Shown: one piece after another, positions 5,112 to 24,410 of the stretch | How positions within the stretch are numbered: position 1 is the stretch's first letter | How the letters are laid out: each line of letters opens with the position of its first letter | Position numbers and translations under genes: made by a program | Source of the DNA: Gemmatimonadota bacterium | GTDB taxonomy: Bacteria; Gemmatimonadota; Gemmatimonadetes; Longimicrobiales; RSA9 | Length of the DNA stretch: 24,497 bases | NCBI GenBank assembly: GCA_040905425.1 | Contig: JBBDRO010000002.1 | Span: 39,731 to 64,227 of the forward strand | Reading direction: 5' to 3' | The notes under the pieces: model-generated | Database searches by the model: none | The model's input: the letters and a program-made list of their open reading frames with translations, nothing else | Told to the model about the DNA's origin: nothing

Positions 5112-5159
5112 GGTCTCCCTGACCGATGGGGATGGTCCGGCTCACTGCCCATCGGACTA

Positions 5160-7222: not shown

Positions 7223-7278
7223 TTGACGTACGCCCACCCACGCTGCACCTTCCATACAGACTCTTAAACAAAGACTCT
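7223..7278 (+). promoter_or_regulatory. Putative sigma70 promoter and operator of padR-1
   Basis: TTGACG-17 bp-CACCTT (7223-7251), followed by a direct repeat AGACTCT-N7-AGACTCT just before the GGAGGA RBS. Confidence 0.4.
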
Positions 7279-7292
7279 GGAGGAAGAAGCTC

Positions 7293-7631: not shown

Positions 7632-10307
7632 GTGGCGCGCATGCCCCGGGATGCCATACGCCGGCTCTTTCGCCTGCCGCTGCGGCGCAGGGATCTAACG
7701 GAGGCCCGGGTGGAGGAGGAGATCAGCTTCCACCTGGAGCAGCGCACCGAGCGTCTGATTGCGCAGGGGCTGCAGCCGGAGGCGGCACGCAGGGAGGCGC
7801 GCCGCCGCCTGGGTTCGGAGCACGAACTGCGCAGCGTCCGGCGCGCGGCGCTGCGGCGCGAGCGGCGGCTGCGGGTCCGGGACTGGACGGCGGACCTGAT
7901 GCAGGATCTCCGGCACGCCGGACGACGTCTGCGCGGCACGCCCGGGTTCACCACCGCCGCCCTGCTGACCCTGGCCCTGGGGATCGGCGCGGCCACGGCC
8001 GTGTTCACCGTGGTGGAAGGCGTGCTGCTGCGCCCCTTGCCCTTCCCCGAGCCGGACCGCCTCGTCCGCGTCTTCGAGGTGAACCCGGAAGGTGACGATC
8101 ACAACGTGGTGTCCCCCGGGAACTACCTGGATTGGCGGGGCAGCGGTGCGTTCGCGGTCCTGGGTGCCCACCGCTATCCCTACGGCGTCTCGCTCACGGG
8201 GGAAGGGGAGGCAGCCCGCGTTCGCATCCTGGACGTGGCGCCCGCGGTCATGGAGGCGCTGGGCAGGGACGCCCTGCTGGGGCGGCGGCTACTCCCGGAG
8301 GACGCCGCGGGTGACGGTCTCGTGGCCGTCCTCAGCCATGGCTTCTGGCGCAGCCGGTTCGGCGCGGACCGGGAGATCATTGGACGGAAGCTCCTGCTCA
8401 ACCAGCAGAGCGTGGAGGTCGTGGGCGTCATGCCGGAGGATTTCCGCCTGCCCACGCCCGAGCCGGACCTGTACCTGCCGCTCACCAACGGTGATCTGGA
8501 CCCGGACGAGCGCCGCGGCCACATGCTCTATGTCATCGGGCGCCTGGCGCCAGGCGCCCCGGTGGCGTCCGCGGAGAGCGAACTCCAGACGCTCGCCGCG
8601 GGACTGGCCACGAGCTATCCCGAAGCCATGAGCGGGTGGAGCGTGAACGTGGAGCCGCTCCAGGGGGACATGGTGGCCGAGGCCCGCCCGCTGCTGGTGG
8701 CGCTCATGGGCGCCGTGGCGCTCATCCTGCTCATTGCATGCGCCAACGTGGGGAACCTGCTCCTGGCCCGGGCGGTGGGTCGCGACCGGGAGATGACGGT
8801 GCGGGCCGCCCTGGGCGCGGGGCGCGGACGCCTGGTCCGGCAGCTCCTAGCCGAGGGTCTCCTCCTGGGTACGTTGGGAGGCGCTCTCGGCCTGGGTGCG
8901 GCCACGGTGGCCATGCCCCTGCTGCTGGCCCTGGCACCGGCGGACATCCCCCGCATCGAGACCGTCGGGCTGGGATCCGCAGCCATGGCCTTCGCGCTGG
9001 CCGCCACGCTGGCCAGCGTGCTGCTCTTCGCGCTCCTGCCGGCTCTGCGGATCACCCTGCCGGCAGGGCGCACGGGGCTGGGCACGCGGGACGCGGGCGC
9101 GGGCAGGGTGCAGGCTCGCCTCCAGTCGGCGTTCCTGGTGGGGGAGATAGCCCTCTCGCTGGTCCTCCTGGTAACGGCGGGGCTCCTGGTGCGCTCCGCC
9201 GCCCGGCTCCACCAGGTGGAGCTGGGCTTCACCAGCGGGGCACTGGCTGCGGCGTCCCTCGACCTGCCCGGGGCCCGCTACGGAGGGATCGAGCCCGCCA
9301 CCCGCTTCTATGCGGAGCTGACGGAGCGCGTGCGGGCCATCCCCGGCGTGGCGGCGGTTACCGGCACGACGGAGCCGCCGGTGGTCGGATTCGGGATGAC
9401 CTTCTCCTTCGCCATCCAGGGACGACCGGCCGGCACCGCCTCCGGACGGGAGGATGATGACAACCTGCGCGTGGTGCTGCCCGGCTATTTCGAGACGATG
9501 GGCATTCCCGTGCTCCGCGGTCGCGGCTTCATGCCCCAGGACCGTGCGGGCACCACACCCGTGCTCATCGTCAATGAGACACTAGCCCGCAAGCACTGGC
9601 CGGACGGCGGTGCCGTCGGGGCGCTCGTGAGCTTTGCCGGGCCCGACGAGGGTCCTTGGTGGGAGATCGTGGGGGTGGTCGGGGACACCCGGCTCGCCAG
9701 TGCGGCGGAGGCGCCCATCCCGGCCATCTACATGCCCCATGCGCAGCGCACCTGGGCGTGGATGTCCTGGCTGTCCCTGGTGGTCCGGACGGATCCTAAC
9801 GTGGATCCGGGCGGTCTGGGGGGCGCGATCCGGTCGGTGCTGCGCGAGCTGGATCCTGACGTTCCGCTGCACAGTCTGGAACCGGTGGAGGGTCTTTACG
9901 AGGACAGCCTGGCCCCGCGACGATTCGCCACGCTGCTCCTGGGCAGCTTCGCCGCCTTCGCCATGCTGCTCGGCGCGATCGGGCTGTACGGCGTGGTTTC
10001 CTACAACGTGGCGCAGCGGCATCGGGAGCTGGGCATCCGGAAGGCCCTGGGCGCCAGGGAGGGGGCGCTGGTGCGTCTCGTGCTCGCTCAGGGACTGCGC
10101 GTGGCCGTCCTGGGCATGGCGCTCGGCGCCATCCTGGCGCTGACGGGGACCCGCCTGGTCCACTCGCTCCTCTACGGCGTGTCCGCGACCGACCCCCTCA
10201 CATACGCAGCGGTCAGCGGGCTGCTCCTGGCGGTGGTGCTGGGCGCGTCCCTGGTACCGGCGCTGCGGGCGGCCCGCACGGATCCCGCCCGTGTGCTGCG
10301 GGAATAG
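7632..10307 (+). CDS. Duplicated ABC permease (ADOP type; two MacB/FtsX-like halves) no. 1
   Basis: N-terminal EEEISFHLEQR...EAARREARRRLG prefix, QDLRHAGRRL..PGFT..LTLALGIGA, LIACANVGNLLLAR, RAALGAGRGRLVRQLL, GLYGVVSY..RELGIRKALGA, PALRAARTDP. Start could be ATG 7641. Confidence 0.94.
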   Translation: MARMPRDAIRRLFRLPLRRRDLTEARVEEEISFHLEQRTERLIAQGLQPEAARREARRRLGSEHELRSVRRAALRRERRLRVRDWTADLMQDLRHAGRRLRGTPGFTTAALLTLALGIGAATAVFTVVEGVLLRPLPFPEPDRLVRVFEVNPEGDDHNVVSPGNYLDWRGSGAFAVLGAHRYPYGVSLTGEGEAARVRILDVAPAVMEALGRDALLGRRLLPEDAAGDGLVAVLSHGFWRSRFGADREIIGRKLLLNQQSVEVVGVMPEDFRLPTPEPDLYLPLTNGDLDPDERRGHMLYVIGRLAPGAPVASAESELQTLAAGLATSYPEAMSGWSVNVEPLQGDMVAEARPLLVALMGAVALILLIACANVGNLLLARAVGRDREMTVRAALGAGRGRLVRQLLAEGLLLGTLGGALGLGAATVAMPLLLALAPADIPRIETVGLGSAAMAFALAATLASVLLFALLPALRITLPAGRTGLGTRDAGAGRVQARLQSAFLVGEIALSLVLLVTAGLLVRSAARLHQVELGFTSGALAAASLDLPGARYGGIEPATRFYAELTERVRAIPGVAAVTGTTEPPVVGFGMTFSFAIQGRPAGTASGREDDDNLRVVLPGYFETMGIPVLRGRGFMPQDRAGTTPVLIVNETLARKHWPDGGAVGALVSFAGPDEGPWWEIVGVVGDTRLASAAEAPIPAIYMPHAQRTWAWMSWLSLVVRTDPNVDPGGLGGAIRSVLRELDPDVPLHSLEPVEGLYEDSLAPRRFATLLLGSFAAFAMLLGAIGLYGVVSYNVAQRHRELGIRKALGAREGALVRLVLAQGLRVAVLGMALGAILALTGTRLVHSLLYGVSATDPLTYAAVSGLLLAVVLGASLVPALRAARTDPARVLRE

Positions 10308-10396
10308 CGCGGCGGCCCCCGGAGCCTTCCCTTCGCTCTTGTGCCTTTGCCTGGCCCGATAGCGGCGGTGCGCCCCACGTCAGGGGCGCACCCCGC

Positions 10397-13063
10397 CTAC
10401 TCCGCCCGCATGGTCTCCATGGGACTGACCCTCGATGCCCTCAGCGACGGCAGGTAGCTGGCCGTCCACGCCGCGCCCGCCAGCACCAGCACCATGGCGG
10501 CGAAGGTGAGCGGATCCGCGGGCGCCACCCCGAAGAGCAGCGCTTCCAGGAGCCGCGTCAGCCACAGCGCCGCGGCACCCCCTACCAGCAGCCCGATCGC
10601 TGTGGCTCCCAGGAAATGGCGGCGTACCAGGCGGCGGACCGCCACCGGCTCCGCGCCCAGCGCCATACGGATGCCGATTTCCTTGGTGCGCCGCTCCACC
10701 GCGTAGGACACCACGCCATAGATCCCCACGCACGCCAGGAGCAGCGCCAAACCGGCAAAGCCGAGCAGCAGCGTGAGCGTGAAGCGCCGTTCCGTCAGGG
10801 CGCCCGCCAGCCGCTCTTCGATGGTGCTGAAGCCGAGCGGTACCTCGCCGTCCACCCGTGCCAGGGCCTGCCGCACGGCCGGCGCGAGCGCGACGGGCGG
10901 CCCAGCGCTGGCGGTGAGCACCACGCTCATGCTGCGGGTGCGCTGCAATCGCTGCCCCAGCGGGAAATAGTACGTCAGCTCCGGGTCGTCGGTGAGGGCG
11001 CGCTGGCGGACGTTGCCCACCACGCCGATGACCGTGGCCCAGCGGTCCTGCTCGTAGTATTCGTCCATGCCGCCGCCGGTGAGGCGCTTGCCGATGGGAT
11101 CCTCCCCCGGCCAGACAGCGTCGGCAAAGGCCTGGTTCACCAGCGCCACGTGCGGCTGGTCCGGCACCTCCCCGCCGTCGAACATGCGCCCCCGCACGAG
11201 CGGGATCCCGAGCACGTCGAAGTAGCCAGGCGTGACCAGCTGGTAGTAGCCGGTAGCGAACGGCGTGGCGGCCTGGCTCACGTCCACGCGGCCGTTGCCG
11301 AGCTGCGCGATCGGTGCGGCGCTCGCCAGCCCAACGCGCGCAACGCCGGGAACCGCCTCCGCGGTCTCCAGGACCGCCTGGAAAAAGCGCGTGCGGGTGG
11401 CCCCGTCCGGGTAGCGCCCCGCCGGTGGCGAGATGGAGACGGTCAGGACGTCCTCCGTGACGTAGCCCGGGTCCACGGCCAGCACCGACCAGAAGCTGCG
11501 CAGCAGCAGCCCCGAACCCACCAGGAGCGTCAGGGCCAGGGCCACCTCCAGCGCCACCAGGCCGGACCACACGCGGTGCTCGCGGCGTCCGCTACCGCCG
11601 CGCGCGCCGCTGCGCAGCGTGCCGGCCAGTTCGCCGGCGGAGTCGCGCAGCGCCGGGAGTAGACCCGTCAACACAGCGGTCAGGACGGCCGCCGCCACCG
11701 TGAAGGCCAGTACCGAGCCGTCCACGCGGACCTGGTCCAGTCGGGGGAACCCCTCCGGTGCCAGGAGCGGCAGGAGGCGCACCAGCCAGACGGCCAGGCC
11801 CGTGCCCAGCGCCGCGCCCAGGACGGCCAGCATGAGGCTCTCCGTGAAGAGCTGCCGGATCACCCGTGCGCGCCCCGCTCCCAGGGAGCGGCGCACGGCC
11901 AGTTCGCGGACCCGTGCCGTGCCGCGGGCCAGCGTGGTGCTCGCCAGGTTCGTGCACGCCACCAGCAGCACCAGCCCGGCCGCGCCGAGCAGAATCAGGA
12001 GCGCGCGGCGGGTGTTGCCCACCATGGCCTCGCGGAGACCAACCACCTCCGCCTGAGCCGGCCAGAACGCGGAGGTGCCGTCCACGTTCGCGGCGGAGCT
12101 CACCTCCAGGAAGGAGGCGGTGATCGCGTCCAGTTCAGCATCCGCCTGCGTGATGCTGGCCCCAGAGGCGAGCCGCCCGAGGGTGCGCCAGTTGTGGGCG
12201 GTGCGCGACTGCGTCTGCTCGAAGATCTCCATCGGCACCCAGAGGTCCGTGCCCTCCGGGTAGGAGAAGCCCGCCGGCGCCACGCCCACCACCGCCACGT
12301 CCAGGCCATCCGCGTTCAACCGCAGCCCCTCGAGCGGAGCGGCACCGAGCCTGGTGGTCCAGAAGGCGTGGCTCACCACCACCACGGGCGCGGCACCCAG
12401 CACCTGCTCCTCGGGCGCGAAGTCCCGCCCGACCGCTGGCACCGCGCCCAGCACCTCGAAGAAGCCGCGACTGACCAGCACCGACCGCGCCCGCTCCGCG
12501 ACGCCCCCAGCCACCACGCTGATGGTTCCGCCCCCGTTGTCGTGGGCCACCAGCGCGTCGAAGGACTGTGCCCGGTCGCGCCAGTCCGCGAAGTTGCGCC
12601 ACGCGCTGCCCATGCGATCCCCGGCGGGATTGACCTCCCACACCCGCACCAGCCGCTCCGGCTCGGGGTAGGGGAGCGGCCGCAGCAGTACGCCGTTGAC
12701 CACGCTGAAGACGGCGGTGTTGGCGCCTATGCCCAGAAGCAGCGTCAGGAGCGCCACCAGCGTGTAGCCCGGACTCCGCCGCAACGTCCGCCCGGCGAAC
12801 TTCAGGTCCTGCAGTACCGATTCCAGCATCCCCGCCCTCCTCCGCGCCCGTCGGGACGCGCGTTCGATGGTCTGCATCTCACTCTCGATGGCCACCCGGT
12901 TGCCCAGGAGGCGCTCCGCCTCGGCCCGCGCCGCGTCCGGCGCCCAGCCGGCGGCCACCAGCTCCATGGCCCGCTCCTCCACGTGGTGGTGAAGCTCCCG
13001 GGCCACGTCCTCCCGCACGGGCACGGCATGCAGCACGGGGCGCGTCAGACGGCGCCGCCTCAC
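10397..13063 (-). CDS. Duplicated ABC permease (ADOP type) no. 2
   Basis: Prefix RELHHHVEER...DAARAEAERLLG, QDLKFAGRTLRRSPG, LGIGANTAVFSVVNGVLLRPLPY, GIYGVVSYAVERRTKEIGIRMALGA. Start placed at GTG 13063, overlapping the padR-2 stop (GTGA). Confidence 0.94.
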   Translation of the reverse strand: MRRRRLTRPVLHAVPVREDVARELHHHVEERAMELVAAGWAPDAARAEAERLLGNRVAIESEMQTIERASRRARRRAGMLESVLQDLKFAGRTLRRSPGYTLVALLTLLLGIGANTAVFSVVNGVLLRPLPYPEPERLVRVWEVNPAGDRMGSAWRNFADWRDRAQSFDALVAHDNGGGTISVVAGGVAERARSVLVSRGFFEVLGAVPAVGRDFAPEEQVLGAAPVVVVSHAFWTTRLGAAPLEGLRLNADGLDVAVVGVAPAGFSYPEGTDLWVPMEIFEQTQSRTAHNWRTLGRLASGASITQADAELDAITASFLEVSSAANVDGTSAFWPAQAEVVGLREAMVGNTRRALLILLGAAGLVLLVACTNLASTTLARGTARVRELAVRRSLGAGRARVIRQLFTESLMLAVLGAALGTGLAVWLVRLLPLLAPEGFPRLDQVRVDGSVLAFTVAAAVLTAVLTGLLPALRDSAGELAGTLRSGARGGSGRREHRVWSGLVALEVALALTLLVGSGLLLRSFWSVLAVDPGYVTEDVLTVSISPPAGRYPDGATRTRFFQAVLETAEAVPGVARVGLASAAPIAQLGNGRVDVSQAATPFATGYYQLVTPGYFDVLGIPLVRGRMFDGGEVPDQPHVALVNQAFADAVWPGEDPIGKRLTGGGMDEYYEQDRWATVIGVVGNVRQRALTDDPELTYYFPLGQRLQRTRSMSVVLTASAGPPVALAPAVRQALARVDGEVPLGFSTIEERLAGALTERRFTLTLLLGFAGLALLLACVGIYGVVSYAVERRTKEIGIRMALGAEPVAVRRLVRRHFLGATAIGLLVGGAAALWLTRLLEALLFGVAPADPLTFAAMVLVLAGAAWTASYLPSLRASRVSPMETMRAE

Positions 13064-13407
13064 GCGGCCGCCGGCGCGGTGGCATAGAGCACCCGGCCCA
13101 TGGCCTCCACGTAGCGCCCCCAGTCGCGCACATCGCGGCGCAGCGCTGCCTTTCCTTCCCGGGTGAGTTCGTAGAAGCGGGCGTCCCGGCCCGTCTCCGT
13201 CGTGGCCCACTCGGATTTCAGGAGCCCCTTCTTCTCCAGGCGCCGGAGGGCCGGGTAGAGGGCGCCCTCCTCCACGCGGAAGGCCTCCTCCGTGGCGGAG
13301 CGGATGGTCCGTGAGATGGCGTAGCCGTGCAGGGGTCCCCAGGACACGGTCTTGAGGATGAGGACGTCCAGCGTGCCCTTGAGCAGTTCCATGGACCGGT
13401 CGGTCAT
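13060..13407 (-). CDS. PadR family transcriptional regulator (ADOP-associated type) no. 2
   Basis: ELLKGTLDVLILKT, LHGYAI, VEEGALYPALRRLEKKGLLKSEW, RFYELT. ATG 13407 follows GGAG. Confidence 0.94.
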   Translation of the reverse strand: MTDRSMELLKGTLDVLILKTVSWGPLHGYAISRTIRSATEEAFRVEEGALYPALRRLEKKGLLKSEWATTETGRDARFYELTREGKAALRRDVRDWGRYVEAMGRVLYATAPAAA

Positions 13408-13452
13408 GTGCAGCTTCTCCGGCGGGCGTGAGGGATCCGGCCACGATGGCCG

Positions 13453-13500
13453 TTGACACATAAGACAGCGATGGGTAACAGAACGTTGCATCGGTGTCAA
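13453..13500 (-). promoter_or_regulatory. Putative sigma70 promoter / operator of padR-2
   Basis: Perfect TTGACA -35 on the minus strand at 13500-13495, with a weak -10 at 17-bp spacing. The region is bracketed by the inverted repeat TTGACAC (13453-13459) ... GTGTCAA (13494-13500). Confidence 0.45.
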
Positions 13501-13523
13501 GAATATGGTCGTCGCCCGGCCGG

Positions 13524-16217
13524 CTACTCCCCCTCCAGCACCACCCGCACCTCGGTCCGCGCCGCCCGGAGCGCCGGCAGCAGAGACGCCGCCAGCGCGG
13601 CAAGCGCCAGCAGCGCCGCCGTGCCGGCCAGCAGGCGCGGGTCTCCCGGGGAGGTGCGGTAGACCAGCGCCGCCAGCACCCGCCCCAGCGCCAGCGACCC
13701 GGCTATCCCCAGCACCAGCCCGCCAGCCGTCAGGGCAAGCCCCTGCCGCACCACCAGCCCCGCCACCTGCGCGGCGCGGGCGCCCAGCGCCAGGCGGATG
13801 CCGAGCTCCCGGCGCCGCATCCCCACGGCATAGGCCAGCACGCCGTAGAGCCCCAGGAGCGCCAGGGAGAGGGCCAGCCCCGCGAAGACCGCCGTCAACA
13901 CGAAGGCAAAACTCCGCTGGCTCCGGCCCCGCCCCAGCACGTCGGCCAGCGGCGCGGGCTGATGCACCACCAGGAGGGGATCCGCCGCGGCGATTTCCCG
14001 TCGCACCGCCGGGAGGAGCGTCATGGGGTCCTCCCCCTCGGCCCCTACCAGATAGTTCATGGTCCAGAAGCGCTCGGCGTACTCGTCATGCAGGTGGTAG
14101 AGGTGGGGCATGGGCTCCCCCTCGGTGTCCCCGGCCACGTCACGCACCACGCCGATCACGGTACGGTTCTGCCCGCCCCCCCGCGTGCGCTGGCCGATGG
14201 CCGAGGTGCCGGGGAAGAGGGCCTCCGCCGTGGAGCGGCTGATGATGGCCACCGTGTCGGGGCTTGCCACGTCGCGGGCATCGAAGAGCCGGCCCTCCAG
14301 CAGCTCGATGCCCACCACGCGGAAGTAGTCTCCCGCCACCACGCGCTGGTCCACGGGGAAGAAGGACGGCTCGTCGCTGGCCAGCGGCCCGGTGAGGGGA
14401 AAGGTGCCCCAGTTGTAGGCCATCCCGGTGGCGGGGAGCCAGGTGGTGGCGCCCGCGGCGCGCACCCCCGGGAGCGCCGCCAGGCGCTCCGTCATCCGGC
14501 GGTGGAACGCCGCCCGCGCGGGACCGTCGTAGCGCGCGGCGGGAAGATTGAGCTCGAAGGTGAGCACGGCGTCGTCGCTTAAACCAAGGTCCACATCCAG
14601 GAGCCGGTGCATGCTGGCCCCCAGCACGGCGGCGCCGGAGAGGAGCATCACCGCCAGCGCCACCTGGCCCGCCACCAGGAAGGCCCGGACCCGGGCATAG
14701 CCGCGTCCCGCGGAACTGCCGCGGCCCCCGTCGCGGAGCGCCTCACCGGGCCGCGTGCCGCCCAGGCGGAGCGCGGGGGCCAGGCCGAACGCCGCCCCGG
14801 TGAGCAGCGTCACGGCCGCGGCGAAGGCCAGCGCCGCCGGGTCCACGCCCACCTCGGCAGCGCGGGGCAGGGCGCTGCCACCCAGCGCCAGGAGGCCGCG
14901 GACGCCCAGCACCGCTACGCCCAGCCCCGCCGCGCCGCCCACCGCCGCCAGCAGCAGGCTCTCCGTCATGAGTTGCCCCGCGATGCGCACCCTCCGCGCC
15001 CCCAGCGCCGCCCGCACCGCCATCTCCCGCCGCCGCCCCAGCGCCCGCACCATCTGCAGGTTGGCCACGTTCACCACGGCAATGAGGAGCACGATGCCCA
15101 CCGCACCCGCCAGGAGGAGAAGCCCGGGGCGGGCCGCCCGCACCACGTCCTCGTGCAGGGGGCGCAGATGGAAGTGGGTGTCATCCGCCGCGTCGGGGAA
15201 GCGCTCGGCCAGCGCCCGATCCAGCGACGCCATCTCAGCCCGGGCCGCCGCCGGCGTCACGCCGTCACGTAGCCGGCCGATCATCCCCAGGTAGTGGTTG
15301 CCCGGACTCTGCTCCCTCACCAGGTCCTCGGGAATCCAGGCCTCCACGGCGCCCATCAGCGGGTCCTCGAGGTCCGCGGGCATGACCCCCACCACCGTGC
15401 GCCGCGTGCCGTCCATTTCCACCGTTGCGCCGGGGGCGCCATCCGGACCCAGCCGCCGTTGCAGCCGCTCCGAGATCACCACCACGGGTGCGGGCGCTTC
15501 ATCGGCCCGCGTGAAGCCGCGCCCCGCCCGGGGCGGCACGCCCAGCACGTCGAAGTAGTCCCCGCTCACACGCAGCACGCGAATGCGCTCCGCCTGCCCG
15601 CCCACCATGAGATCGGCCGCCGTCTCGTCGTAGGCGTAGACGGTGGCCACGCCCGCGAAGGAGGCCGCGTGCTCGCGGTAGTGGAGAAAGTGGGGCTGGG
15701 TGACGCTGCCGAACGCGGTGGGGTCCTCGATGTCATACTGGTAGAAGCGCACCAGCTCCCGCGGCTCCGGATAGGGCAGCGGCTCCACGAGCACCGCCCG
15801 CACCACCGTGTAGACCGCCGTGGTGCCGCCGATGCCCAGCGCCAGGGTGACGAGCACCACCAGGGTAAAGGCCGGCGTGCGGAGCAGCCCGCGCGCGGTG
15901 TGGCGGAGGTCCGTTGCCGTCATGATCTGCCTCTTTTCCGGTAAGCGACGATGCCCGTCCGGCGTCCATGCCACACGCTCCCCCTGCGCCGTGTCCTCCC
16001 GTTCCCGCCACGCGCCCGGGGCATTGCCCAGCAGTGCGGCGGCCGCGCGGGGCAGCCAGAGGAGGGCGTGGAGCGCGCCGCGCTCCCGCACGAGCGCGTC
16101 GGCACGGAGACGGTGCGCCTCCACCACTTCCGCTCCGGCCTCCCGGCGGAAGGCGGGCGGATAGAGGAGGAGGAGGGCCCGGGCCATGCTGGCGGCGGCG
16201 CGGCCGGCGAGGCTCAC
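13524..16217 (-). CDS. Duplicated ABC permease (ADOP type) no. 3
   Basis: Different N-terminal prefix (ALLLLYPPAFRREAGAEV), DLRHTARGLLRTPAFT..TLALGIGG, NVANLQMVR..RAALGA, GLYGVLAYAVGMRRRELGIRLALGA. The start is uncertain (GTG 16217 or the ATG ten codons later). Confidence 0.92.
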   Translation of the reverse strand: MSLAGRAAASMARALLLLYPPAFRREAGAEVVEAHRLRADALVRERGALHALLWLPRAAAALLGNAPGAWREREDTAQGERVAWTPDGHRRLPEKRQIMTATDLRHTARGLLRTPAFTLVVLVTLALGIGGTTAVYTVVRAVLVEPLPYPEPRELVRFYQYDIEDPTAFGSVTQPHFLHYREHAASFAGVATVYAYDETAADLMVGGQAERIRVLRVSGDYFDVLGVPPRAGRGFTRADEAPAPVVVISERLQRRLGPDGAPGATVEMDGTRRTVVGVMPADLEDPLMGAVEAWIPEDLVREQSPGNHYLGMIGRLRDGVTPAAARAEMASLDRALAERFPDAADDTHFHLRPLHEDVVRAARPGLLLLAGAVGIVLLIAVVNVANLQMVRALGRRREMAVRAALGARRVRIAGQLMTESLLLAAVGGAAGLGVAVLGVRGLLALGGSALPRAAEVGVDPAALAFAAAVTLLTGAAFGLAPALRLGGTRPGEALRDGGRGSSAGRGYARVRAFLVAGQVALAVMLLSGAAVLGASMHRLLDVDLGLSDDAVLTFELNLPAARYDGPARAAFHRRMTERLAALPGVRAAGATTWLPATGMAYNWGTFPLTGPLASDEPSFFPVDQRVVAGDYFRVVGIELLEGRLFDARDVASPDTVAIISRSTAEALFPGTSAIGQRTRGGGQNRTVIGVVRDVAGDTEGEPMPHLYHLHDEYAERFWTMNYLVGAEGEDPMTLLPAVRREIAAADPLLVVHQPAPLADVLGRGRSQRSFAFVLTAVFAGLALSLALLGLYGVLAYAVGMRRRELGIRLALGARAAQVAGLVVRQGLALTAGGLVLGIAGSLALGRVLAALVYRTSPGDPRLLAGTAALLALAALAASLLPALRAARTEVRVVLEGE

Positions 16218-16293
16218 GCTGCCACCGTCGTGCGGGGCATGCCGCGGCGGCGCGGGCCGGAGCCGACGTGCACTGGCGGACGGCGGAGCCGCC

Positions 16294-16650
16294 TCATGCG
16301 CTCGCCTCCGCCACGCGCGCCCGGCCCGCGGCCAGCAGCACCTCCAGACGCCGGAGTTCGGCCGCCAGCACCCGCCCCCCCAGCGCCGTGGCCTGCCAGT
16401 ACTCCCGCCGGGCGTCCTCCTCCGCCTCCGCCGGCGGCGCCTTGGCGGGGCGGATGAGCCCGTCCTTCCGCATTCGCCGGAGCGCCCGGTACAGGGTGGG
16501 GATCTCGAAGCCCGGCCGACCGCCGCTCCGTTCATCCGCCTCCTGCAGGATGGCGTAGCCGTGCCGGGGGCGGTCCACCACGGAGAGGAGGACGCTGAGC
16601 TCCACCTCGCGGAGGGGGAGATGGGCGTATGGGTCGTGGTGTGGGTTCAT
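16294..16650 (-). CDS. PadR family transcriptional regulator no. 3 (different subtype)
   Basis: LPLREVELSVLLSV..RPRHGYAILQE, PTLYRALRRMRKDGLI, RREYWQATALGGRVL. Confidence 0.9.
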   Translation of the reverse strand: MNPHHDPYAHLPLREVELSVLLSVVDRPRHGYAILQEADERSGGRPGFEIPTLYRALRRMRKDGLIRPAKAPPAEAEEDARREYWQATALGGRVLAAELRRLEVLLAAGRARVAEASA

Positions 16651-16767: not shown

Positions 16768-17139
16768 GCGCATCCTGGCCTTCAACACCGACCCCTAGTC
16801 ATCTTGGCCATCGTGCGCCATCTCGACCAGACGCCCGCCTTCGATGCCGCCGAACCGGACCCCACCCAGGACTTCGACTTCGATCAGAGCCAGAGCTGAG
16901 GCGCATGAGGGCGGAGTCGCGCCCGTGCCACTCGAGCCCGAGCCACCTGGCACGCCTCCCCCCGGCACCTGGCCCGCCTTCATCCCCCTGGCTCCGCGCT
17001 TCACCACGCCGTGCCCCATCCGCCATGGCGCACGGCCCACCCTCCCAGCTTCGCTCCATGCCCGACAGCACGCTTGCCCGCCGAGGAGTCCGCGCAACCT
17101 TGGGTCAAGGACGAAAAGGTGGGTTGGAATTACTATCCC
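16768..17139 (+). mobile_element. IS91/ISCR-like 3' remnant with putative oriIS end, copy 1
   Basis: Degenerate RILAF.TDP...AIVRHLDQTPAFDAAEPD..DFDFDQS C-terminus, direct-repeat homology to 23953-24410, terminus GTGGGTTGGAATTACTATCCC resembling ISCR/IS91 oriIS ends. Confidence 0.7.
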
Positions 17140-17469
17140 CCCAGCCGCCCGCCCATCCCTCCAGGGTAAGCGACCCAGCTCCACTCTAGATGCGCGCACC
17201 TCCGACCGCGGCCACGCGCCAGCCAACCGCCACCCAATACCGGGCCGCGAGCGCACCGAGCGCCGCACATGAGCGCTCCCAGCAAGCAGCACCTTGACGC
17301 AGCCGCCTCCACTCCCCATGTTGCAATCCTGCTCTTATGGGTTCCGCGCCCATCCGCCCCGCGAATGCCCCGCCACCCTTCCACCCCGGGGCAGGTTGAC
17401 CCCCGGAGGGCGAGCGGTCGGGAGACGAGGCTGCCAGTCAGCCGGGCGCCACGTACATAAGACAAGCGG

Positions 17470-18661
17470 TTGCCGCCTTGGCGGGTCGAGCGCTCCGAGA
17501 TTGATGCTGATGCCAAACGCCTTGATGTCCATATCGACTTCCAGCCGGGCGGCACGTTCTCCTGCCCGGATTGCGGTACGGGCGGCTGCAAAGCGTACGA
17601 CACCACGGAAAAGACGTGGCGGCACCTGAACTTCTTCGAGCACCAAGCCTACCTTCACGTGCGCACGCCGCGTGTGTCGTGTAAGCAGTGTGGTGTGAAG
17701 CTGGTCGAGGTGCCTTGGGCGCGGCACGGCAGCGGCTTCACGCTGCTGTTCGAGGCCTATTTGCTGACCCTGTGCAAGGCGTTGCTGGTGGCGGCCGATG
17801 CGCGCTTGGCCGCTGAGCACGACACGCGGCTCTGGCGGGTGCTGTGCCACTACGTTGAGGTGGCCCGAACTGAGGCGGATCACTCGCAGGTGGTCCCCGT
17901 GTCGGCGTGGATGAGACGAGCAGCCGCCGCGGGCACAAATACGTTAGCCTCTTCATGGATATGGATGAGCCGCGCATGCTCTTTGCTACGCCCGGACGGG
18001 CCTAGGAGACGTTCGAGGCATTCCGCGAGGATCTGGTCGCGCATAGGGGCGTACCTGAGCAGATCGAAGAGGTCTGCGTGGACATGTCACCAGCCAATCT
18101 GAAGCGTGCCCGCGATCATTTCCCGGAGGCGAGTGTCACGATTGACAGGTTCCACGTCATGAAGCTCCTGAATGATGTCGTCGATCAGGTCCGCCGGGAG
18201 GAACAGAAGGAACAACCCGAGCTGAAGCGGACGCGCTGGATCTGGCTCAGGAATCCTCACCTACTGCGACGTTCAGCACAGGATCGAGGCGCTCCTCCCA
18301 GAAGAGGTCGGACTGCGAACTGCGGAGGCGTACCGCATCAAGCTCGCGTTTCAGAAGTTCTGGGATCAGCCATCCTGGGAGCACGCCTTTATCTGTACCG
18401 CTGGTACAACATGGCCGTGAAGAGCGCTCTGCCTCCGGTGGTGCGCGTGGCTACAACGCTACTGGAGTTCCGGGAGCAGCTGATCAATTGGTTCCGGTCC
18501 AAAGCCAGCAACGGACTACTCGAAGGCACATCGAGCCTCATCCAGGCGGCCAAGGCAAGGGCACGCGGCTATCGGTCCGTGGAGAACCTCATCACAATGA
18601 TCTACATGCTGACGGGCAAGTTCAGCTTGCCGGGCCTACCCATTTGAAGTAGCGGGGAGCC
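17470..18661 (+). pseudogene. ISL3 family transposase, decayed, with right end
   Basis: Zinc finger CPDCG...WRHLNFFEHQAYLHVRTPRVSC..CG..VPWAR, GVDETS, DMS..IDRFHVMK, SNGLLEG..IQAAKARARGYRS. Frameshift near 17897, in-frame TAG at 18003-18005, further frameshifting about 18270-18385. Ends in AGCGGGGAGCC at 18661. Confidence 0.9.
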
Positions 18662-19067
18662 AGAATTGCCTTTCGCCGAAAGAGGAGCGGCTCACAAGCA
18701 TGAAATGCCTTGGCTTAGCCCCAGAACGCGACGTTCAAGCTGGGACGCCAACTCCTGATCGTCGGCAAGGTTGGGCGAACATGATTTTTCCGAGATCCTG
18801 GCCTGAGATGCCAGAATACCCGTTGCGACCTCGGTTGTGGCTCCTGCATTGGGTGTCAATCCGCTCGGTTGGGTGCATGAACGCGCGTGGAACCGAATCC
18901 CAGGCGAGCGAGGAGACAACGGTTGTCAACGGCGAGTCGGCTGCTGTCTTCGCGTCGGTTATGTCTCTTAGCACACACGCTGCCGGAAAGCTCCACGTAC
19001 CCTGCGTGGAAATGCAAGACGGTACGATCGCACTGCTTGACGTGGTTCGTTCAGGGAGTGTGGGTCG

Positions 19068-20069
19068 GTGAAGGGCGCCAGCGGCCGGGGGCCTGTCGGC
19101 CCGGCCAACGAATGGCCGCAGTCCGCGCACGTGCGAAAGTTCATCGCAAAGGCAGCGGCAGCGATCTGGCTATGCGTGCTGCTGGAGGGCGAGACCGGCA
19201 CGGGAAAGACGTATGTCGCGCGCGCCATCCACGACCGGGGACCGCGGGTTAAGGGTCCGTTCGTGGGCGTCAACAGCGCCAGCCTTTCCGAGACGCTGCT
19301 CGAGTCCGAACTTTTCGGGCACGAGAAAGGTGCGTTCACCGATGCGAAGAACACGCATCACGGGCTCATCGATCACGCGAGCGGCGGCACGCTCCTCCTC
19401 GACGAGATCGGGGAGATGTCCCCAGGGCTCCAAGCGCGGCTCCTGACGCTGCTGGGCGATAACCGCGTGTATCGCCGCGTCGGCGGTGTCGGAGACCTGC
19501 GTACTGACGCTCGGTTTATTTTCGCCACCAACATGAATCTGCTCGAGCTGATGGCACGAAAACTGTTCCGGGCAGATCTCTACCACCGCATCAGCCCGCT
19601 GCGCATCACGCTCCCACCTCTCCGGCAGCGCCTCCACGACATTCCCGCGATGGCCCGCATCCTCCTGGAGCGTCACATGGTGGCAGCCGGCGCCAGCGGA
19701 GCCGCCCCAATCCTGTCGCCGCAGGCCCTCGACGCCTTCCGTGCGTACCCATGGCCCGGGAACATCCGGGAACTGGCGAACGCGCTCGCCAGCGCGCTTC
19801 TGGCAGCCGACGGAGCACCCGTTCTTCAGCCCGACCACCTACCGAGCCACATCCTGAGCGGGACGCCCCCCGCGCCTGATGCGTCGCCTAAACCGAGGCG
19901 GCAAAGGTACGTTCCGCCTCAGGATCCCGCCGAGGAGAGGCGCATGATCATCGAGGCCCTCCGGCTGACGGGCTGGAACCGAACGAAGGCGTCCGCGGCC
20001 CTCGGAATGTCGCGCCGGACGCTCTGGGAGCGGATGCGCCTCTACCGAATCAAAGAATCGGATGCATAA
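19068..20069 (+). CDS. Sigma54-dependent transcriptional activator lacking an N-terminal sensor domain (AAA+ plus HTH)
   Basis: Walker A GETGTGKT about 40 aa from the start, [70 protein letters not shown] upstream of the GTG. Confidence 0.9.
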
Positions 20070-20237
20070 GGCTGCTAAACTTGCGGGACATGCGTGTCTA
20101 CAGCGTGAACACGCCTGTATCCACGATGTCCAAGATGAGAGATCGACCTCGGTGGCCCAGTTCGGAGAGTGATGGAAGTGCATGATTTGCAAGGCCTTGG
20201 ACACCCAGCGTCGACGCGGACGTTGAAAGCGACAGAT

Positions 20238-20253
20238 CGGTCCACGAATTGCA
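20238..20253 (+). promoter_or_regulatory. Putative sigma54 promoter of the Cys-rich peptide gene
   Basis: CGGTCCACGAATTGCA: GG (20239-40)-N10-GC (20251-52) with a consensus TTGCA -12 box, 57 bp upstream of ATG 20310 and directly downstream of a sigma54 activator gene. Confidence 0.6.
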
Positions 20254-20309
20254 GCAGCGAAGTGACCCGTCGCTAATTGGCAACCGCTCTTTAACAAGCA
20301 GAGGCGACC

Positions 20310-20594
20310 ATGCGCAGGAAGAATCGTTTGAGCGAAACCACGCGCTGGATCCGGCTAGCCGCCGTCACGGCGATGCTGCCAATCGCGGTCAGTAGTTTCA
20401 CGTCACAAGCCGTTGCCGGGCAGGAGGATGATTGCCCCGCAGATCATTACCAGAGTTGCATGGCGTGCACCACCCCCGATTTGGCCTGTAGTTGGAAAGA
20501 GGGGGAGACCTGGTGCCACGGCACCCAAGAATGTCGGGATTGCCCCACCAACCCTCAGAGCGATGCGACATATTGCGTGACGGAGCCGACTTGA
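20310..20594 (+). CDS. Small secreted cysteine-rich protein / putative peptide precursor
   Basis: AGAGG RBS, basic N-region, hydrophobic core, AVA cleavage motif, then an acidic about 58-aa mature part with 8 Cys (C-x7-C-x2-C-x6-C-x8-C-x5-C-x2-C-x10-C). Confidence 0.75.
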   Translation: MRRKNRLSETTRWIRLAAVTAMLPIAVSSFTSQAVAGQEDDCPADHYQSCMACTTPDLACSWKEGETWCHGTQECRDCPTNPQSDATYCVTEPT

Positions 20595-20652
20595 ACAGAC
20601 GCATTAGCTTCTGCGCGGCTGACATCGTTTTCGGATTCACGTGACCGTTGGA

Positions 20653-20691
20653 CGCGGAGCGCGAGGCAGTCGACAGCCCTCGCGCTCCGCG
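20653..20691. repeat. Perfect 14-bp GC-rich stem-loop downstream of the peptide gene
   Basis: CGCGGAGCGCGAGG (20653-20666) pairs with CCTCGCGCTCCGCG (20678-20691), 11-nt loop, no U tract. Confidence 0.85.
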
Positions 20692-20849
20692 GATCGAGCA
20701 ACGCCGTTGTAGTTGTCTGCCTCCGGGTAGTCATAGCCTTTGCGCGATGCCAAGGTGTCAAATAACCTGGAGTGCATTTCGGAGTTGAGACAAGCGTAGC
20801 GTGACTGGTTTTAGAGCGAGGTGAGGACCGGCGGTACGATTGACGATGA

Positions 20850-21493
20850 AGCGTTCTTGAGCGGGAAACTCGGCTGCGTGCGGTTGGGGGCTTTGATCTG
20901 ACTTTTCTCGCCGAAGGAGAAGACGATCACCCGTTCGGGAGGTACTATATAGAGCCCGACCACATCCAGCAATTTCTCCCGGGGATCCTTGGACAGCTTA
21001 AAATACTGGACTCGATGGGGTTTGGTGCCGTGAGCCTTCCAGACTCGTCCTACCTGGCTTTGATGAAGCCCCACCTGCTGAGGCATCAGCCGCTGGCTCG
21101 GGTCAGGGCCTGACGGTGGCTTCTCATGAACGATGCGCCGAACACGTCCGTCGCAATCTCATCGGGGACGGTTCGGGGACGTGCTGGGCACGGACGGTCC
21201 TCCTTGATTCCAGCAATTCCCTCGGCCTCGGACTGGTCGAGCTACCGCTGCACCGTGAGTCGGCTCGTACCCACCCAGCGGCTGATGAGGTGGGCGGGCT
21301 TACCTTCGGCCGAACTGAGAACGATACGCGTTTGCTCGACCAAGCGCCGCGGCATCTTACGCGAGCGAATCCACTGCTCAAGGGTAGCCTCGTCGTCGCG
21401 GTACAACGGGATCTGTCGTGCTGGTTTGGGCCGGCCATGGAAAAACAACCCAATAAACTATATAAATATAGACATAGTCCGCCACTACACTAG
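20850..21493 (-). pseudogene. IS630 family transposase remnant (5' half)
   Basis: LEQWIRSRKMPRRLVEQTRIVLSSAEG..TVQR*, RVWKAHGTKPHRVQYFKLSKDP..KLLDVVGLY..PPERVIVFSFGEKSQI..NRTQP. Stop at 21242-21244 plus frameshifts. Terminus CTAGTGTAGTG (minus strand) near 21493. The C-terminal catalytic half is missing. Confidence 0.85.
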
Positions 21494-21504
21494 CGAGGAC
21501 GACC

Positions 21505-22194
21505 ATGACGAAGCGTGATATATGGGAGATTGCTTCGACCGCTATTATTACCATTTCTGTAATCGGCATGCTTGGCATGTATTTGTATGATCGGCGATCG
21601 CGGGTGACGGGCTCACCGGAGCAGCACGAGCCGGACTGGCAGACTTGGGCCGAAACGGGCATCCGGATCGGACCTGACAACGCCGGAATGGTAATTGCTC
21701 AATTTGTCGATTTCAGGTGCCCGTATTGCAGTGGCTTTGCGCCCGTTCTTGACTCGGTTCTGGCCGCATTCGATGGAGAAGTGGCCCTGGAGATCCACCA
21801 TTTCCCATTGGCGAGTCACGAGCTTGCGGTCCCAACAGCAGTTGCCGCCGAATGCGCAGATCGACAAGGAAAGTTCAGACAGATGTACAATACTTTATAT
21901 GAGCAGATGGACTCTGTGGGCCGAAAAACATGGCGCGAACTTGCGGCCGACGCCGAGATCGGGGATATACCGGCGTTCGAAGCGTGTATACAACTCCCGG
22001 CGGAGCAATTCAGCCGAATCGCGGCGGGCCGCGCTCTTGGTGAGCGAATCGGCATTACCGGAACGCCGACCATCTACGTGAACGGCACACTTTCGAGAGA
22101 AAGGTCATTTGTCGGGTTTCAGGACATAGCGCAAGAACTGGGAGTATCTCCTTCCAAATCGACGCCGCTCGTCCCGTCGGATGGTGCTGGCTGA
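21505..22194 (+). CDS. Membrane-anchored DsbA/thioredoxin-fold disulfide oxidoreductase
   Basis: N-terminal TM helix, FVDFRCPYC active site, HHFPL..H, AAECADRQGKF, cis-Pro loop GITGTPTIYVNG. GAGG RBS. Confidence 0.9.
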   Translation: MTKRDIWEIASTAIITISVIGMLGMYLYDRRSRVTGSPEQHEPDWQTWAETGIRIGPDNAGMVIAQFVDFRCPYCSGFAPVLDSVLAAFDGEVALEIHHFPLASHELAVPTAVAAECADRQGKFRQMYNTLYEQMDSVGRKTWRELAADAEIGDIPAFEACIQLPAEQFSRIAAGRALGERIGITGTPTIYVNGTLSRERSFVGFQDIAQELGVSPSKSTPLVPSDGAG

Positions 22195-22269
22195 ATTGTG
22201 GCCATTGTAGTTTTGGCGCCCGGCCTACGGGGTTTTCCGATAACGTTTCGGCTACGGCCGAGGCCGCCT

Positions 22270-23478
22270 GTGCGACTCGGATTGCTGCTGTGCTTGATTG
22301 CCGCGTGCGCCGAACACTCGCAAACGGAGCCTGGCACGGTGCAGCAGCGCGACAGCGCAGGCATTGTCATCATCGAGACCCCGAGCTCGGTCGCCAGAGC
22401 CCCCATCGGCTGGACCATTGGCAAGGTGCCTGAACTCCAACTCGGCGGTGCGGCTGGCCAGGGTTCGGTGTATTTTCACCAGATAGATGGGCGGATTCGG
22501 GGAGGGATGACGGGGTTCCCGGACGGGCGCATCGTAGTGGTGAACGCTGGTACTGGAGAGCTGCTCGTCTTTGACCGGGAAGGACATCTTCTGAACCGCA
22601 GGGGAATCCAAGGGGATGGCCCTGGCGAGTTTCGACGGACCCCAATCCTGGTGCCTTACGTCTCGAATGACTCACTGTTGGTTCGCGAGGATGGACACCG
22701 ACGCTACACGCTTTTTTCGGGCGACGGGCAGATGCATCGCAGTTTCATGCCCGACAGGCCCGGCGTCATCGGCAACGGGGGCGGAGCGTCGGAATCGGAA
22801 ATAGTCCTAACAACTGTTCTCGCGCCACCTCCCATGGTTGAAGGACAACATGTGTGGCCGCATGGTGTTAGCTGGATCAGTGTCGAATCCGGCCGCGCGG
22901 ACACTATCGCCCGATTCAACACACATTTGTATGTGTATTTCGCGGAGAGCCTAGGCGGAGCCCCCTATGGATTCAACGTTCCGTTTACCACGAGTCCTTC
23001 CGTGGCGGTCGGTACCCTGGGTTCTTTCGTGACTGGCGGAGATACCCCGGATGTGCGCGCGTTTGATAACGGTGGCAGACTGGTCCGGATTTTCCGTTTG
23101 ATGGAGGCCCCTCGACCCGTAACGGACGATGACGTCGAGGGCGCGATTGACTCGCTTGTGGCGGGGTTCACCACGGCCATGGCGCGGTCCGAGGCGCGCC
23201 GTGCCTACGAGCGTGTGGATATTCCGAGCCACTGGCCCACCTTTAAGTCTGTGCGCGTCGACCGTCTCGGCTGGATCTGGGCAGAACTGTACCGCCCACC
23301 GCATCACCTGACACCACAGTGGATGGTCTTTGATTCCAGCGGTGTCGCGCGCGGGGTTGTCGACCTACCATCCGGACTCGAGGTGCACGATATCGGTCCC
23401 GACTACGTGCTGGGACGGTGGCTTGATGACCTGCGAGTAGAATATGTCCGACGCTATCGCCTGGAGCGCAGCCGCTGA
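22270..23478 (+). CDS. Putative lipoprotein, 6-bladed beta-propeller (NHL-like)
   Basis: Lipobox-like LLCLIAAC after a GTG at 22270 (the ORF is open from 22198), RDSAGIVII, blade motifs DGRIVVV, LLVFDREG, GDGPGEF, VRAFDNGG, VDRLGWIW, WMVFDSSG, ending VRRYRL. Confidence 0.75.
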   Translation: MRLGLLLCLIAACAEHSQTEPGTVQQRDSAGIVIIETPSSVARAPIGWTIGKVPELQLGGAAGQGSVYFHQIDGRIRGGMTGFPDGRIVVVNAGTGELLVFDREGHLLNRRGIQGDGPGEFRRTPILVPYVSNDSLLVREDGHRRYTLFSGDGQMHRSFMPDRPGVIGNGGGASESEIVLTTVLAPPPMVEGQHVWPHGVSWISVESGRADTIARFNTHLYVYFAESLGGAPYGFNVPFTTSPSVAVGTLGSFVTGGDTPDVRAFDNGGRLVRIFRLMEAPRPVTDDDVEGAIDSLVAGFTTAMARSEARRAYERVDIPSHWPTFKSVRVDRLGWIWAELYRPPHHLTPQWMVFDSSGVARGVVDLPSGLEVHDIGPDYVLGRWLDDLRVEYVRRYRLERSR

Positions 23479-23809
23479 CGTTCGGCTGAACCTCATCGGA
23501 TCTGTCGCATCGCAACGTTGGTGTGCTCATCCACTCGCATCGGGTATCGTGGCGAGGGAAGACCCTGACATCCTCGTCAAGCAACCGCCGGATGAAACGG
23601 ATGTGGCGCTAGTGCTGCGGCAGCCGTCAGGGAGCTACCATGGCCACGCTCGCCGAGGTCGATGGGTCGTGGTATCCGTGGTGGCGCTGGCCAAGGAGCA
23701 CACGGCGGCCCTTGAGAATCCAGCGGCAGCCGCCGGGATTATCGTCTCTGACGAAGTGGCTGAGGAGGTGACCGGGACGCGCGGGGTGCCCGCAGTACGC
23801 GGGATGTGC

Positions 23810-24410
23810 GGCGCCGACGCCCCGGACGATCCGCCCGGCGAAGTCGCACCGCTCGATCCCGCCCGGCGCGCCGCCCGCTCCCGCTGGGCCCGCCTCATCG
23901 CCCGCATCTACGAGGTCTCGCCTCTCACCTGCCCCAACTGGAGCGCCCAGATGCGCATCCTGGCCCTCCTTACCGACCCCCCAGTCAACGTGGCCATCCT
24001 GGGCCACCTGGACCTGCCCACCCGTCCGCCCGCGCTTTCCCCGGCCCGCGGGCCGCCTCAGCCCGACCTCCCCCTAAACACCGAGGCGCCCGATCACCTC
24101 GACCAGACGCCCGCCTTCGGTGCCGCCGAGCCGGACCCCATCCCGGACTTCGACTTCGACCAGAGCTGAGGCGCCGGAGGGGGGAGCCACGCCTGCACAC
24201 CTCGGGACAACGCCGCCGGGCGCCCTTCCACCCCGCGCCTGGCCCGTCCCCACTCCCCCGACCCCGCGCTTCGCCACGCCGTGCCCGCTCCGCCATGGCG
24301 CACGGCCCACGCTCGCAGGTTCGCTCCCCGACCGACAGCACGCTTGCCTCCGCCGAGGAGCCCGCCCTGCCTTGGGTCGGGGAAGAAAAGGTGGGTTGGA
24401 ATTACTTCTA
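23810..24410 (+). mobile_element. IS91/ISCR-like transposase C-terminal fragment with putative oriIS end, copy 2
   Basis: RWARLIARIYEVSPLTCPNWSAQMRILALLTDP..ILGHL..PP.LSPARGPP, typical of IS91-like C-termini (second Cys lost). Stop at 24169. Terminus GTGGGTTGGAATTACTTCTA at 24391-24410. The left boundary is approximate. Confidence 0.75.

Follow-up and report, generated by a model that had tools for sequence, protein, structure and literature searches.

Gene content of the locus

We analysed a 24,497-nucleotide stretch of a Gemmatimonadota genome (order Longimicrobiales; the whole stretch is hereafter the window), in which four neighbouring genes encode a sensor-less sigma54 activator, a cysteine-rich peptide, a DsbA-like oxidoreductase and a beta-propeller lipoprotein. 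An earlier note, made from the letters alone, had described these genes as intact and co-oriented, which they are: all four frames are open on the forward strand (19068–20069, 20310–20594, 21505–22194 and 22198/22270–23478) and the catalytic motifs are intact. The peptide, the DsbA-like protein and the propeller make up a real, recurrent and undescribed cassette, whose function is predicted only. Two sediment-run assemblies (longest contig pieces) match the window letters exactly over 16937–20657 and 20687–23706 and may be the source of the DNA; no RNA dataset carrying the locus was among the matches listed.

The peptide gene (20310–20594, forward strand) encodes 94 amino acids, which homologue alignment and inspection divide into a Sec-type leader and an acidic mature part with a net charge of about −9. 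All eight cysteines follow the hydrophobic leader, with a spacing of 7-2-6-8-5-2-10; the leader, judged by inspection and a hydrophobicity heuristic, spans about 36 residues, ends in AVA and by eye is probably cleaved after Ala36. Because the homologues P0005 (62–63% identity), P0006 (41%) and P0007 (35%) keep all eight cysteines on inspection, the gene is, as judged from its sequence relatives, a member of a real gene family, and the eight-cysteine peptide that had been claimed stands; six of the cysteines are invariant columns in a MAFFT alignment of the homologues. Neither Pfam nor NCBIfam held a family for the window peptide, and none scored above cut-off for the 16 peptides scanned. A search of the ESM Atlas with the peptide returned no usable match, and an AlphaFold2 model built on a four-row alignment reached a predicted local distance difference test score (pLDDT) of 42. 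No double-glycine site was present in P0001 or its homologues. P0006 and a 71% identical DsbA, P0011, were each read from a single Logan contig, in both cases 1749 bp long; if the two share a single contig, for which equal lengths are the only basis, peptide and dsbA are adjacent there.

The membrane-anchored DsbA-like oxidoreductase (21505–22194, forward strand) carries a CPYC motif and was recognized by Pfam match and homologue alignment (Thioredoxin_4, E = 7e-20; Thioredoxin_4 and DSBA scores of 72.3 and 48.3 bits against cut-offs of 23.2 and 25.6), which agrees with its earlier description as a DsbA-like CxxC protein. Across 11 homologues C72, P73, C75, T187 and P188 are invariant, with a Thr before the cis-Pro motif, and C117 and C161 form a second conserved cysteine pair. 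The genome encodes a single VKOR, flanked by two DsbAs outside the peptide cassettes, and no DsbB was found in the assembly, which is 96.7% complete. The protein is taken here as a putative cassette-specific oxidase. The peptide and dsbA have the near-identical translation starts that had been pointed out: the same five letters before ATG occur in 3 of 3117 GAGG..ATG strings genome-wide, two of these three in the window, which we treat as a post-hoc curiosity.

The last gene (22198–23478, forward strand) encodes an NHL-type beta-propeller lipoprotein, with a likely start at 22270 and its lipobox cysteine at 22306–22308, as assigned from homologues, AlphaFold2 and fold searches; the propeller lipoprotein first read from the letters is thereby confirmed in outline. 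Its AlphaFold2 model has a pLDDT of 90, and the top matches by Foldseek, by VIA-align and by profile search (E = 1e-38) are all NHL domains. The best fold match was the Brat NHL domain (Z 19.0, root-mean-square deviation (rmsd) 3.6, 260 residues aligned), followed here by the Bacteroides DUF4221 structure 3s9j (Z 16.9, rmsd 4.7, 299 aligned). By the likeness of these matches, the modelled protein is assigned to the NHL-type six-bladed fold. Its match to DUF5128 (PF17170) is weak (E = 3e-4; 20.6 bits against a Pfam cut-off of 22.9), 2 of 10 homologues pass that cut-off, and Atlas clusters carry DUF5128 on 31–46% of members. The closest named orthologues are Longimicrobiales and Gemmatimonadota records.

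Among 31 propeller homologues the lipobox cysteine is nearly invariant, full invariance is confined to Gly and Pro columns, and no polar residue is invariant, a pattern that argues for a predicted binding scaffold rather than an enzyme. Of the receptor, immunity and maturation roles first offered for this protein, maturation enzyme is therefore the least likely. A catalytic propeller resembling peptidyl-glycine amidating lyase, suggested by a weak fold and profile match, is disfavoured for the same lack of an invariant polar residue.

Recurrence of the cassette

Recurrent linkage of such peptides with DsbA and propeller homologues had been named as a check on the proposal, and the linkage survived it strongly. 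The window unit does not stand alone in its own genome, which holds five peptide–DsbA–propeller cassettes: a propeller stands no more than 200 nt from six of the eight DsbA paralogues, and upstream of five of those six is a peptide gene with eight mature cysteines (C2, C47, C52, C74 and C100), with no peptide found at the sixth, the C62 DsbA–propeller locus. Under a strict peptide filter, set post hoc after the data had been seen, the genome yielded ten open reading frames (ORFs), eight of which have a co-oriented propeller no farther than 2 kb away (background 6.1%). A profile built from the paralogues of the window propeller gave 114 matches, some fragmentary, among 52,454 six-frame frames of the 4.1-Mb genome. 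A second type of exported Cys/His protein, 144–189 amino acids long, lies directly downstream of propellers in the same genome (C9:1079-1573, C32:156394-156963, C59:8190-8624, C100:154624-155121 and C110:15-461).

Beyond this genome, a DsbA profile of 11 close homologues, applied to seven candidates per genome, matched 32 of 401 genomes of the order (own included) at an E value of 1e-45 or better; 41 outside profile matches and four DsbAs from other searches gave an external set of 45, whose neighbours were scanned with four profiles and the peptide filter only. Co-oriented and within 2 kb, a propeller accompanied 37 of these 45 close DsbAs, a signal-bearing Cys-rich ORF accompanied 36, and both accompanied 32, whereas neither partner was found beside 25 of 25 distant DsbAs (0 of the 12 with 2 kb upstream), controls that are mostly short metagenome contigs and probably from other taxa. 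Where at least 2 kb of upstream sequence was available, a peptide was called in 30 of 35 cases; four of the nine DsbAs without a peptide call have less than 2 kb. Counted by genome or record, both partners were present in 27 of 35, covering 12 genus labels. Among 35 cassettes the order peptide–propeller–dsbA (21) was more frequent than the window's peptide–dsbA–propeller (7). At one locus, L019, a gene of the window peptide's family is followed by a propeller gene and this by a DsbA of 59% identity; among the 35 cassettes it is the nearest neighbour of the window cassette for both peptide and DsbA.

Peptide diversity, cysteine parity and co-variation

The cassette peptides with at least six cysteines have an even mature count in 44 of 46 cases. 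They fall into 29 sequence clusters with unrelated spacings, 27 of which are all-even, so the even counts anticipated by the earlier note were found. All 46 peptides are neutral or acidic, as selected by a filter that demanded acidic residues and so missed any cationic members. Even counts favour disulfides over metal thiolates, we infer, and together with the fast change of non-Cys residues they speak against metal or redox buffering, in which the cysteines would bind metal and the DsbA-like protein would keep them reduced. The closest solved sequences to the DsbA profile are annotated as DsbA, thioredoxin-domain and copper-resistance proteins, copper- or metal-resistance proteins standing among the ten closest, and copper-binding Sec-exported Cys peptides exist (bufferins, PMC11626156); with no MNIO enzyme in the window's cassette, we consider such buffering very improbable.

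Ratios of nonsynonymous to synonymous substitution rates (dN/dS) were computed for ten related cassettes, keeping 15 of 45 pairs with a proportion of synonymous differences (pS) below 0.35 in DsbA. Mature peptide positions other than cysteine had the highest ratio (0.64), followed by the propeller (0.43), the leader (0.41) and DsbA (0.21), and in the four pairs with one tandem copy the nonsynonymous proportion (pN) was about equal to pS. The peptides change fast, and these rates alone are not proof of positive selection.

Peptide similarity tracks the propeller more closely than DsbA (Spearman 0.85 versus 0.46, ten cassettes). A partial Mantel test on 35 cassettes gave 0.16 for the propeller (p = 0.001) and 0.01 for DsbA (p = 0.47), a signal that is small and drawn from non-independent kin and from some tandem cassettes that are probably mis-paired. 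Tandem cassettes at L014, L077, L087, L088 and L089 combine near-identical leaders and DsbAs with diverged mature peptides; mature peptide identity is 37% in the L013/L014 comparison.

The sensor-less activator and its relatives

Upstream of the peptide, 19068–20069 (forward strand) encodes a 333-residue sensor-less sigma54 enhancer-binding protein (Pfam Sigma54_activat at residues 27–180, HTH_8 at 290–324), with an AAA+ domain bearing Walker A and B motifs and a Fis-type helix-turn-helix. Its loop reads GAFTDA, as does that of another activator in the window, and its true start may lie near residue 22. The homologue P0028 (79% identity, 315 amino acids) is also sensor-less; it carries the same odd residues at the N-terminus, and the suspicion of a double frameshift there was dropped. 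The genome contains rpoN.

A GG-N10-GC promoter had been proposed before the peptide gene. The candidate −24/−12 site at 20238–20253 (forward strand) is the best in the activator–peptide intergenic region and has three mismatches to consensus, with a score at chance level; sites of that quality number 107 in the window against 96.7 expected. Before the 46 cassette peptides, six sigma54 consensus sites were counted against 4.1 expected, which is no enrichment. By eye, a perfect 8-bp inverted repeat (20127–20134/20196–20203) lies between activator and peptide and offers candidate activator sites.

Viewed from the activator, the link to peptide genes is strong. Built on eight sensor-less relatives, a profile found matches in 41 of 72 genomes of the family, and 39 loci of a sister clade were fetched after the profile search, 37 of them with at least 1 kb downstream. 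In 22 of these 37 the first co-oriented gene, judged by eye, encodes a small leader-bearing peptide; an automatic Cys filter retained 13 of a differently defined 37. The remaining 15 begin with a gene for a cyclic nucleotide monophosphate (cNMP)-lyase (4), a probable outer-membrane barrel in one genus (8, by eye) or something else (3). The peptides are of four-Cys, two-Cys and double-glycine types, with genes for lipoproteins, ABC transporters, CAAX proteases or a C39 exporter behind them. An unsupervised motif search of 23 such intergenic regions recovered a GG-N10-GC motif of 12.6 bits, against 9.4–9.7 bits in shuffles, and the held-out region of the C91 paralogue scored 17 bits on the resulting matrix, a score reached by 0 of 300 shuffles.

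In a quick tree the window activator falls outside this peptide-preceding clade (43 rows, mostly sensor-less), in its sister group, with support of 97 for the whole and 87 for the window activator's own group. That group includes L136, described below, and L141, where the activator is followed by a redoxin, a propeller and a four-Cys peptide. That the window activator regulates the window peptide is plausible. Two of three activator-profile matches beside external DsbA cassettes were discarded, their sequences being OmpR-like and LytTR-like.

Regulator–peptide adjacency, here and at the 22 sister-clade loci, is also what a signalling system would predict, in which the peptide is a pheromone-like ligand sensed via the propeller and feeding back on the activator. 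The sigma54-like motif, having been found unsupervised, fits such a system, as does the variation among members of the P0007 cluster, which is allelic and concentrated in one loop. Against it, the activator lacks an input domain, nothing in the propeller spans the membrane for signalling, and the window's cassette has no kinase or anti-activator, which leaves signalling a poor candidate.

Several further locus types were seen beside relatives of the activator. At L136 (8444–9399) the activator closest to the window's precedes two small related-looking genes without a Pfam family and a CAAX protease. Ten loci (L145, L146, L149–L152, L165, L169, L176 and L178) share a conserved unannotated set 3′ of a sensor-less activator and behind a sigma54-like motif: a secreted peptide of 67–80 amino acids with two Cys-x6-Cys motifs, a 330–350-residue lipoprotein, for which scans of three members gave no Pfam family, and in most cases an ABC ATPase with a permease. 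Sensor-less activators at L157, L159, L166 and L139 precede bacteriocin-like peptides with double-glycine leaders and CAAX proteases, with HlyD and C39 exporter genes in L157 and redoxin-like and C39-like exporter genes in L139. At L143, L145, L158, L160–L162, L166 and L168 a gene that joins a cNMP-binding domain to a fumarase/aspartase-type lyase follows the activator, either directly or past a peptide cassette, and the gap between the two genes resembles a slot for exchangeable cargo. Another cassette type, at L143, L148, L153 and L154, encodes a secreted, Thr-rich peptide of about 110 amino acids with two cysteines, a DsbA and usually a propeller.

Transcript features and mobile-element remnants

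The strong hairpin that had been noted after the peptide gene stands as far as its arms go: they are a perfect 14 bp (20653–20691, forward strand; arms 20653–20666 and 20678–20691, from a repeat search), but the element has no U tract, is not in the terminator listing of the window, and the 126-nt stretch containing it has a fold only modestly more stable than that of shuffled versions (z = −1.9; 8 of 200). Stems of similar strength lie 3′ of the peptide gene in C74 and L108, and weaker ones in six of nine loci folded. The hairpin is more likely to be an mRNA-stabilising or partial-stop stem than an intrinsic terminator.

The four genes had also been placed amid decayed insertion sequence (IS) pieces. 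The flanks are indeed decayed elements; the genes themselves are not contiguous, as a frameshifted IS630-family remnant (20811–21493, reverse strand; NCBIfam transpos_IS630, E = 8e-7, and six-frame reading) occupies most of the 910-nt gap between peptide and dsbA. In an end search one apparent end, recognized by what we take to be the motif of such ends, lies 11 nt before the dsbA start; the search did not find the other end, and no contig skipping the remnant was among the matches listed. To the left lie a broken ISL3 transposase in two pieces (17470–18647, forward strand; Pfam and NCBIfam matches) and an IS91/ISCR-like 3′ end (16768–17134, forward strand; repeat and six-frame reading), the latter a direct repeat of the right copy, where a transposase tail and end remain (23683–24406, forward strand; weak ISCR_clade_Ia match, E = 0.007). 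Relatives of the right copy are present on several other contigs. Its position between the broken ISL3 and the directly repeated IS91/ISCR-like ends suggests that the cassette is probably mobile cargo; a plasmid-collection search with the propeller and DsbA gave no match. Farther upstream (window 151–16650), frames named by eye include long ABC-type permeases, three PadR-like regulators, an efflux adaptor, a TolC-like protein, an ABC ATPase and an NtrC-type two-component pair.

These remnants, the IS630 piece inside and the others around, raise the prospect that the family is real and that IS elements assembled or uncoupled this copy, which would no longer be a unit. The chance-level promoter, propeller orthologues without a peptide, and a cassette GC content of 0.606 against 0.705 for the genome point the same way. 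Such decay is nonetheless improbable: the four frames and catalytic motifs are intact, the peptide and DsbA share their nearest neighbour locus, and in comparisons with the nearest orthologues with DNA, pN lies below pS for the propeller (0.19/0.47), DsbA (0.23/0.66) and peptide (0.41/0.63).

Proposed function of the cassette

The reading we put first, tentatively and with somewhat less than even confidence in the whole chain, is that the exported disulfide peptide is polymorphic and that the propeller serves as its cognate receptor or immunity protein, the window holding one mobile copy of such a cassette of Gemmatimonadota-like bacteria. The peptide would very likely be exported through Sec and lose its leader, as its anatomy suggests, and the cassette's membrane-anchored DsbA-like enzyme, itself probably re-oxidised by the host's single VKOR, would likely form the four disulfides. 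The predicted export by Sec and folding by a cassette-specific oxidase, as first proposed for the locus, are well supported by anatomy and cysteine parity. Non-enzymatic binding of the folded peptide by the propeller lipoprotein is slightly favoured. The next step is the weakest and gives the pair a role in competition between cells or in telling kin apart: the peptide, which changes fast, would be the effector, and the propeller its cognate immunity protein or receptor. The many propellers without a peptide would then be orphan receptors or immunity genes. We see even odds that the sensor-less activator switches on the peptide gene via sigma54, with its activity tuned by its own abundance or by a trans partner.

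In favour of this ligand-and-receptor chain stand the recurrence of the cassette, the L019 locus with both nearest relatives, the even cysteine counts, the fast change of the mature peptide and its closer tracking of the propeller, and the lack of an invariant polar residue in the propellers. The cassette DsbAs are, moreover, additional to the two that flank VKOR, and relatives of the activator precede double-glycine peptides and CAAX-protease genes as well as peptide, lipoprotein and ABC sets, layouts that are typical of bacteriocin loci. A complex prediction for mature peptide and propeller scored 0.02, which counts neither for nor against.

Several observations weigh against it, beginning with a dN/dS that was never clearly above 1 and the limits of the Mantel signal given above. 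The window's candidate promoter scores −2.5 bits on the sister-clade matrix, a value reached by 264 of 300 shuffles, so the promoter first claimed exists as letters and scores at chance. Nor is the activator the fixed member of the unit that it had seemed, a true activator standing at 1 of 45 DsbA loci (1 of 24 with 4 kb on both sides). Only 10 of the 114 propellers have a filter-passing peptide within 2 kb, the closest propeller orthologues (65–68% identity, L001 and L002) have no peptide in 5–6 kb per side, with only a dsbA 3′ remnant retained at L001, and the L019 propeller is 34% identical to that of the window. With the IS630 remnant in between, dsbA and propeller may no longer be transcribed together with the peptide gene. 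Typical antibacterial peptides are cationic and the window peptide is acidic; the cassette also has no dedicated outer-membrane exporter, and the genome offers two secretins and a GspK match that is only sub-threshold.

The acidic peptide, its Sec leader and the missing exporter would suit an envelope-resident module, in which the disulfide mini-protein would remain in the periplasm or at the surface as the propeller's variable subunit; the two together would bind ligands from outside (phage, predator or polymer), with nothing released. The 114 propeller matches suggest a diversified binding repertoire, peptide–propeller co-variation fits equally, and an acidic disulfide module on a six-bladed propeller recalls the low-density lipoprotein receptor. 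Set against this are the sister clade of the activator, which also precedes clearly exported double-glycine peptides, and the stem 3′ of the peptide gene, which suggests an excess of peptide over propeller; we consider an envelope-resident module unlikely, though deserving of attention.

Disulfide-rich mini-proteins are known mostly from animals and plants, and the small sample here already holds 29 clusters of bacterial ones, which usually come with a folding enzyme of their own and a propeller partner. Should peptide and propeller bind each other, a very large unannotated lipoprotein family, with 114 matches in one 4.1-Mb genome, would gain a function, and the tandem paralogues make cognate and non-cognate binding directly comparable. 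Further unannotated peptide loci, some of them bacteriocin-like, can be located through the clade of sensor-less activators. A bolder extension, which we also regard as unlikely, is a large polymorphic ligand–receptor code in Gemmatimonadota-like bacteria: dozens of unrelated acidic disulfide mini-proteins would each be read by their own NHL propeller lipoprotein, a library of about a hundred propellers per genome would recognise own and foreign peptides, and the sensor-less sigma54 clade would be the dedicated switch. If true, bacteria would here have a new class of self/non-self recognition, and with it a natural library in which disulfide scaffolds come with matched binders.

Comparison with known systems

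Bacteroides propellers are associated with NVEALA peptides, and the window propeller resembles the DUF5128 (PF17170)/DUF4221 propellers of Bacteroidota (3s9j, 4raa) in its weak profile match, similar fold and export, while falling below the DUF5128 cut-off in Pfam. PspF and HrpR/S are sensor-less sigma54 activators; like them, the window activator pairs AAA+ and helix-turn-helix domains with no N-terminal regulatory domain. Unlike PspF, it scores 200.7 bits against a model cut-off of 443.55 and no pspA-like anti-activator was seen in the window, and unlike both PspF and HrpR/S it is allied to a separate clade that usually precedes peptide genes. Lantibiotic clusters combine the LanI lipoprotein with ABC-transporter immunity, and the sublancin cluster has dedicated disulfide enzymes, BdbA/BdbB. 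Compared by described working only, the cassette likewise has a lipoprotein by a peptide gene and a dedicated disulfide enzyme, but no modifying enzymes.

The absence of radical SAM, YcaO, LanM and MNIO enzymes that had been noted holds among the cassette ORFs, which comprise the activator, peptide, DsbA, propeller and IS pieces. An enzyme-modified, ribosomally synthesized peptide class was rejected on that basis, a trans-acting enzyme not having been looked for. A literature description of the cassette was not found, most subscription papers and supplementary tables being outside the scope of the search, which also returned no papers under the names NVEALA, DUF5128, DUF4221, DUF4934 or PF17170. 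In the main text of a paper on the MNIO landscape the terms propeller, thioredoxin, DsbA and Gemmatimonad do not appear (PMC12452194).

Bufferins depend on an MNIO (DUF692) enzyme with a DUF2063 partner and contain thiooxazoles (PMC11626156). They share with the window a Sec-exported small Cys peptide precursor and a compact operon; with neither DUF692 nor DUF2063 among the cassette ORFs, identity with bufferins was rejected. Bacteroidetocins (class IIf bacteriocins) have their own thiol oxidoreductase, suggested by the authors to form disulfides, 15–16-residue double-glycine leaders and an ABC transporter/peptidase, with four cysteines in bacteroidetocins A and B (PMC6671954). A bacteroidetocin or class II double-glycine cluster was rejected for want of a short double-glycine leader and of an ABC transporter with a C39 peptidase, no such ORF lying between the flanking IS remnants. 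The small Cys peptide beside a thiol oxidoreductase gene is what the two systems have in common, and the window cassette differs in having no exporter and in combining a Sec-type leader, eight cysteines and an acidic mature peptide with a propeller lipoprotein.

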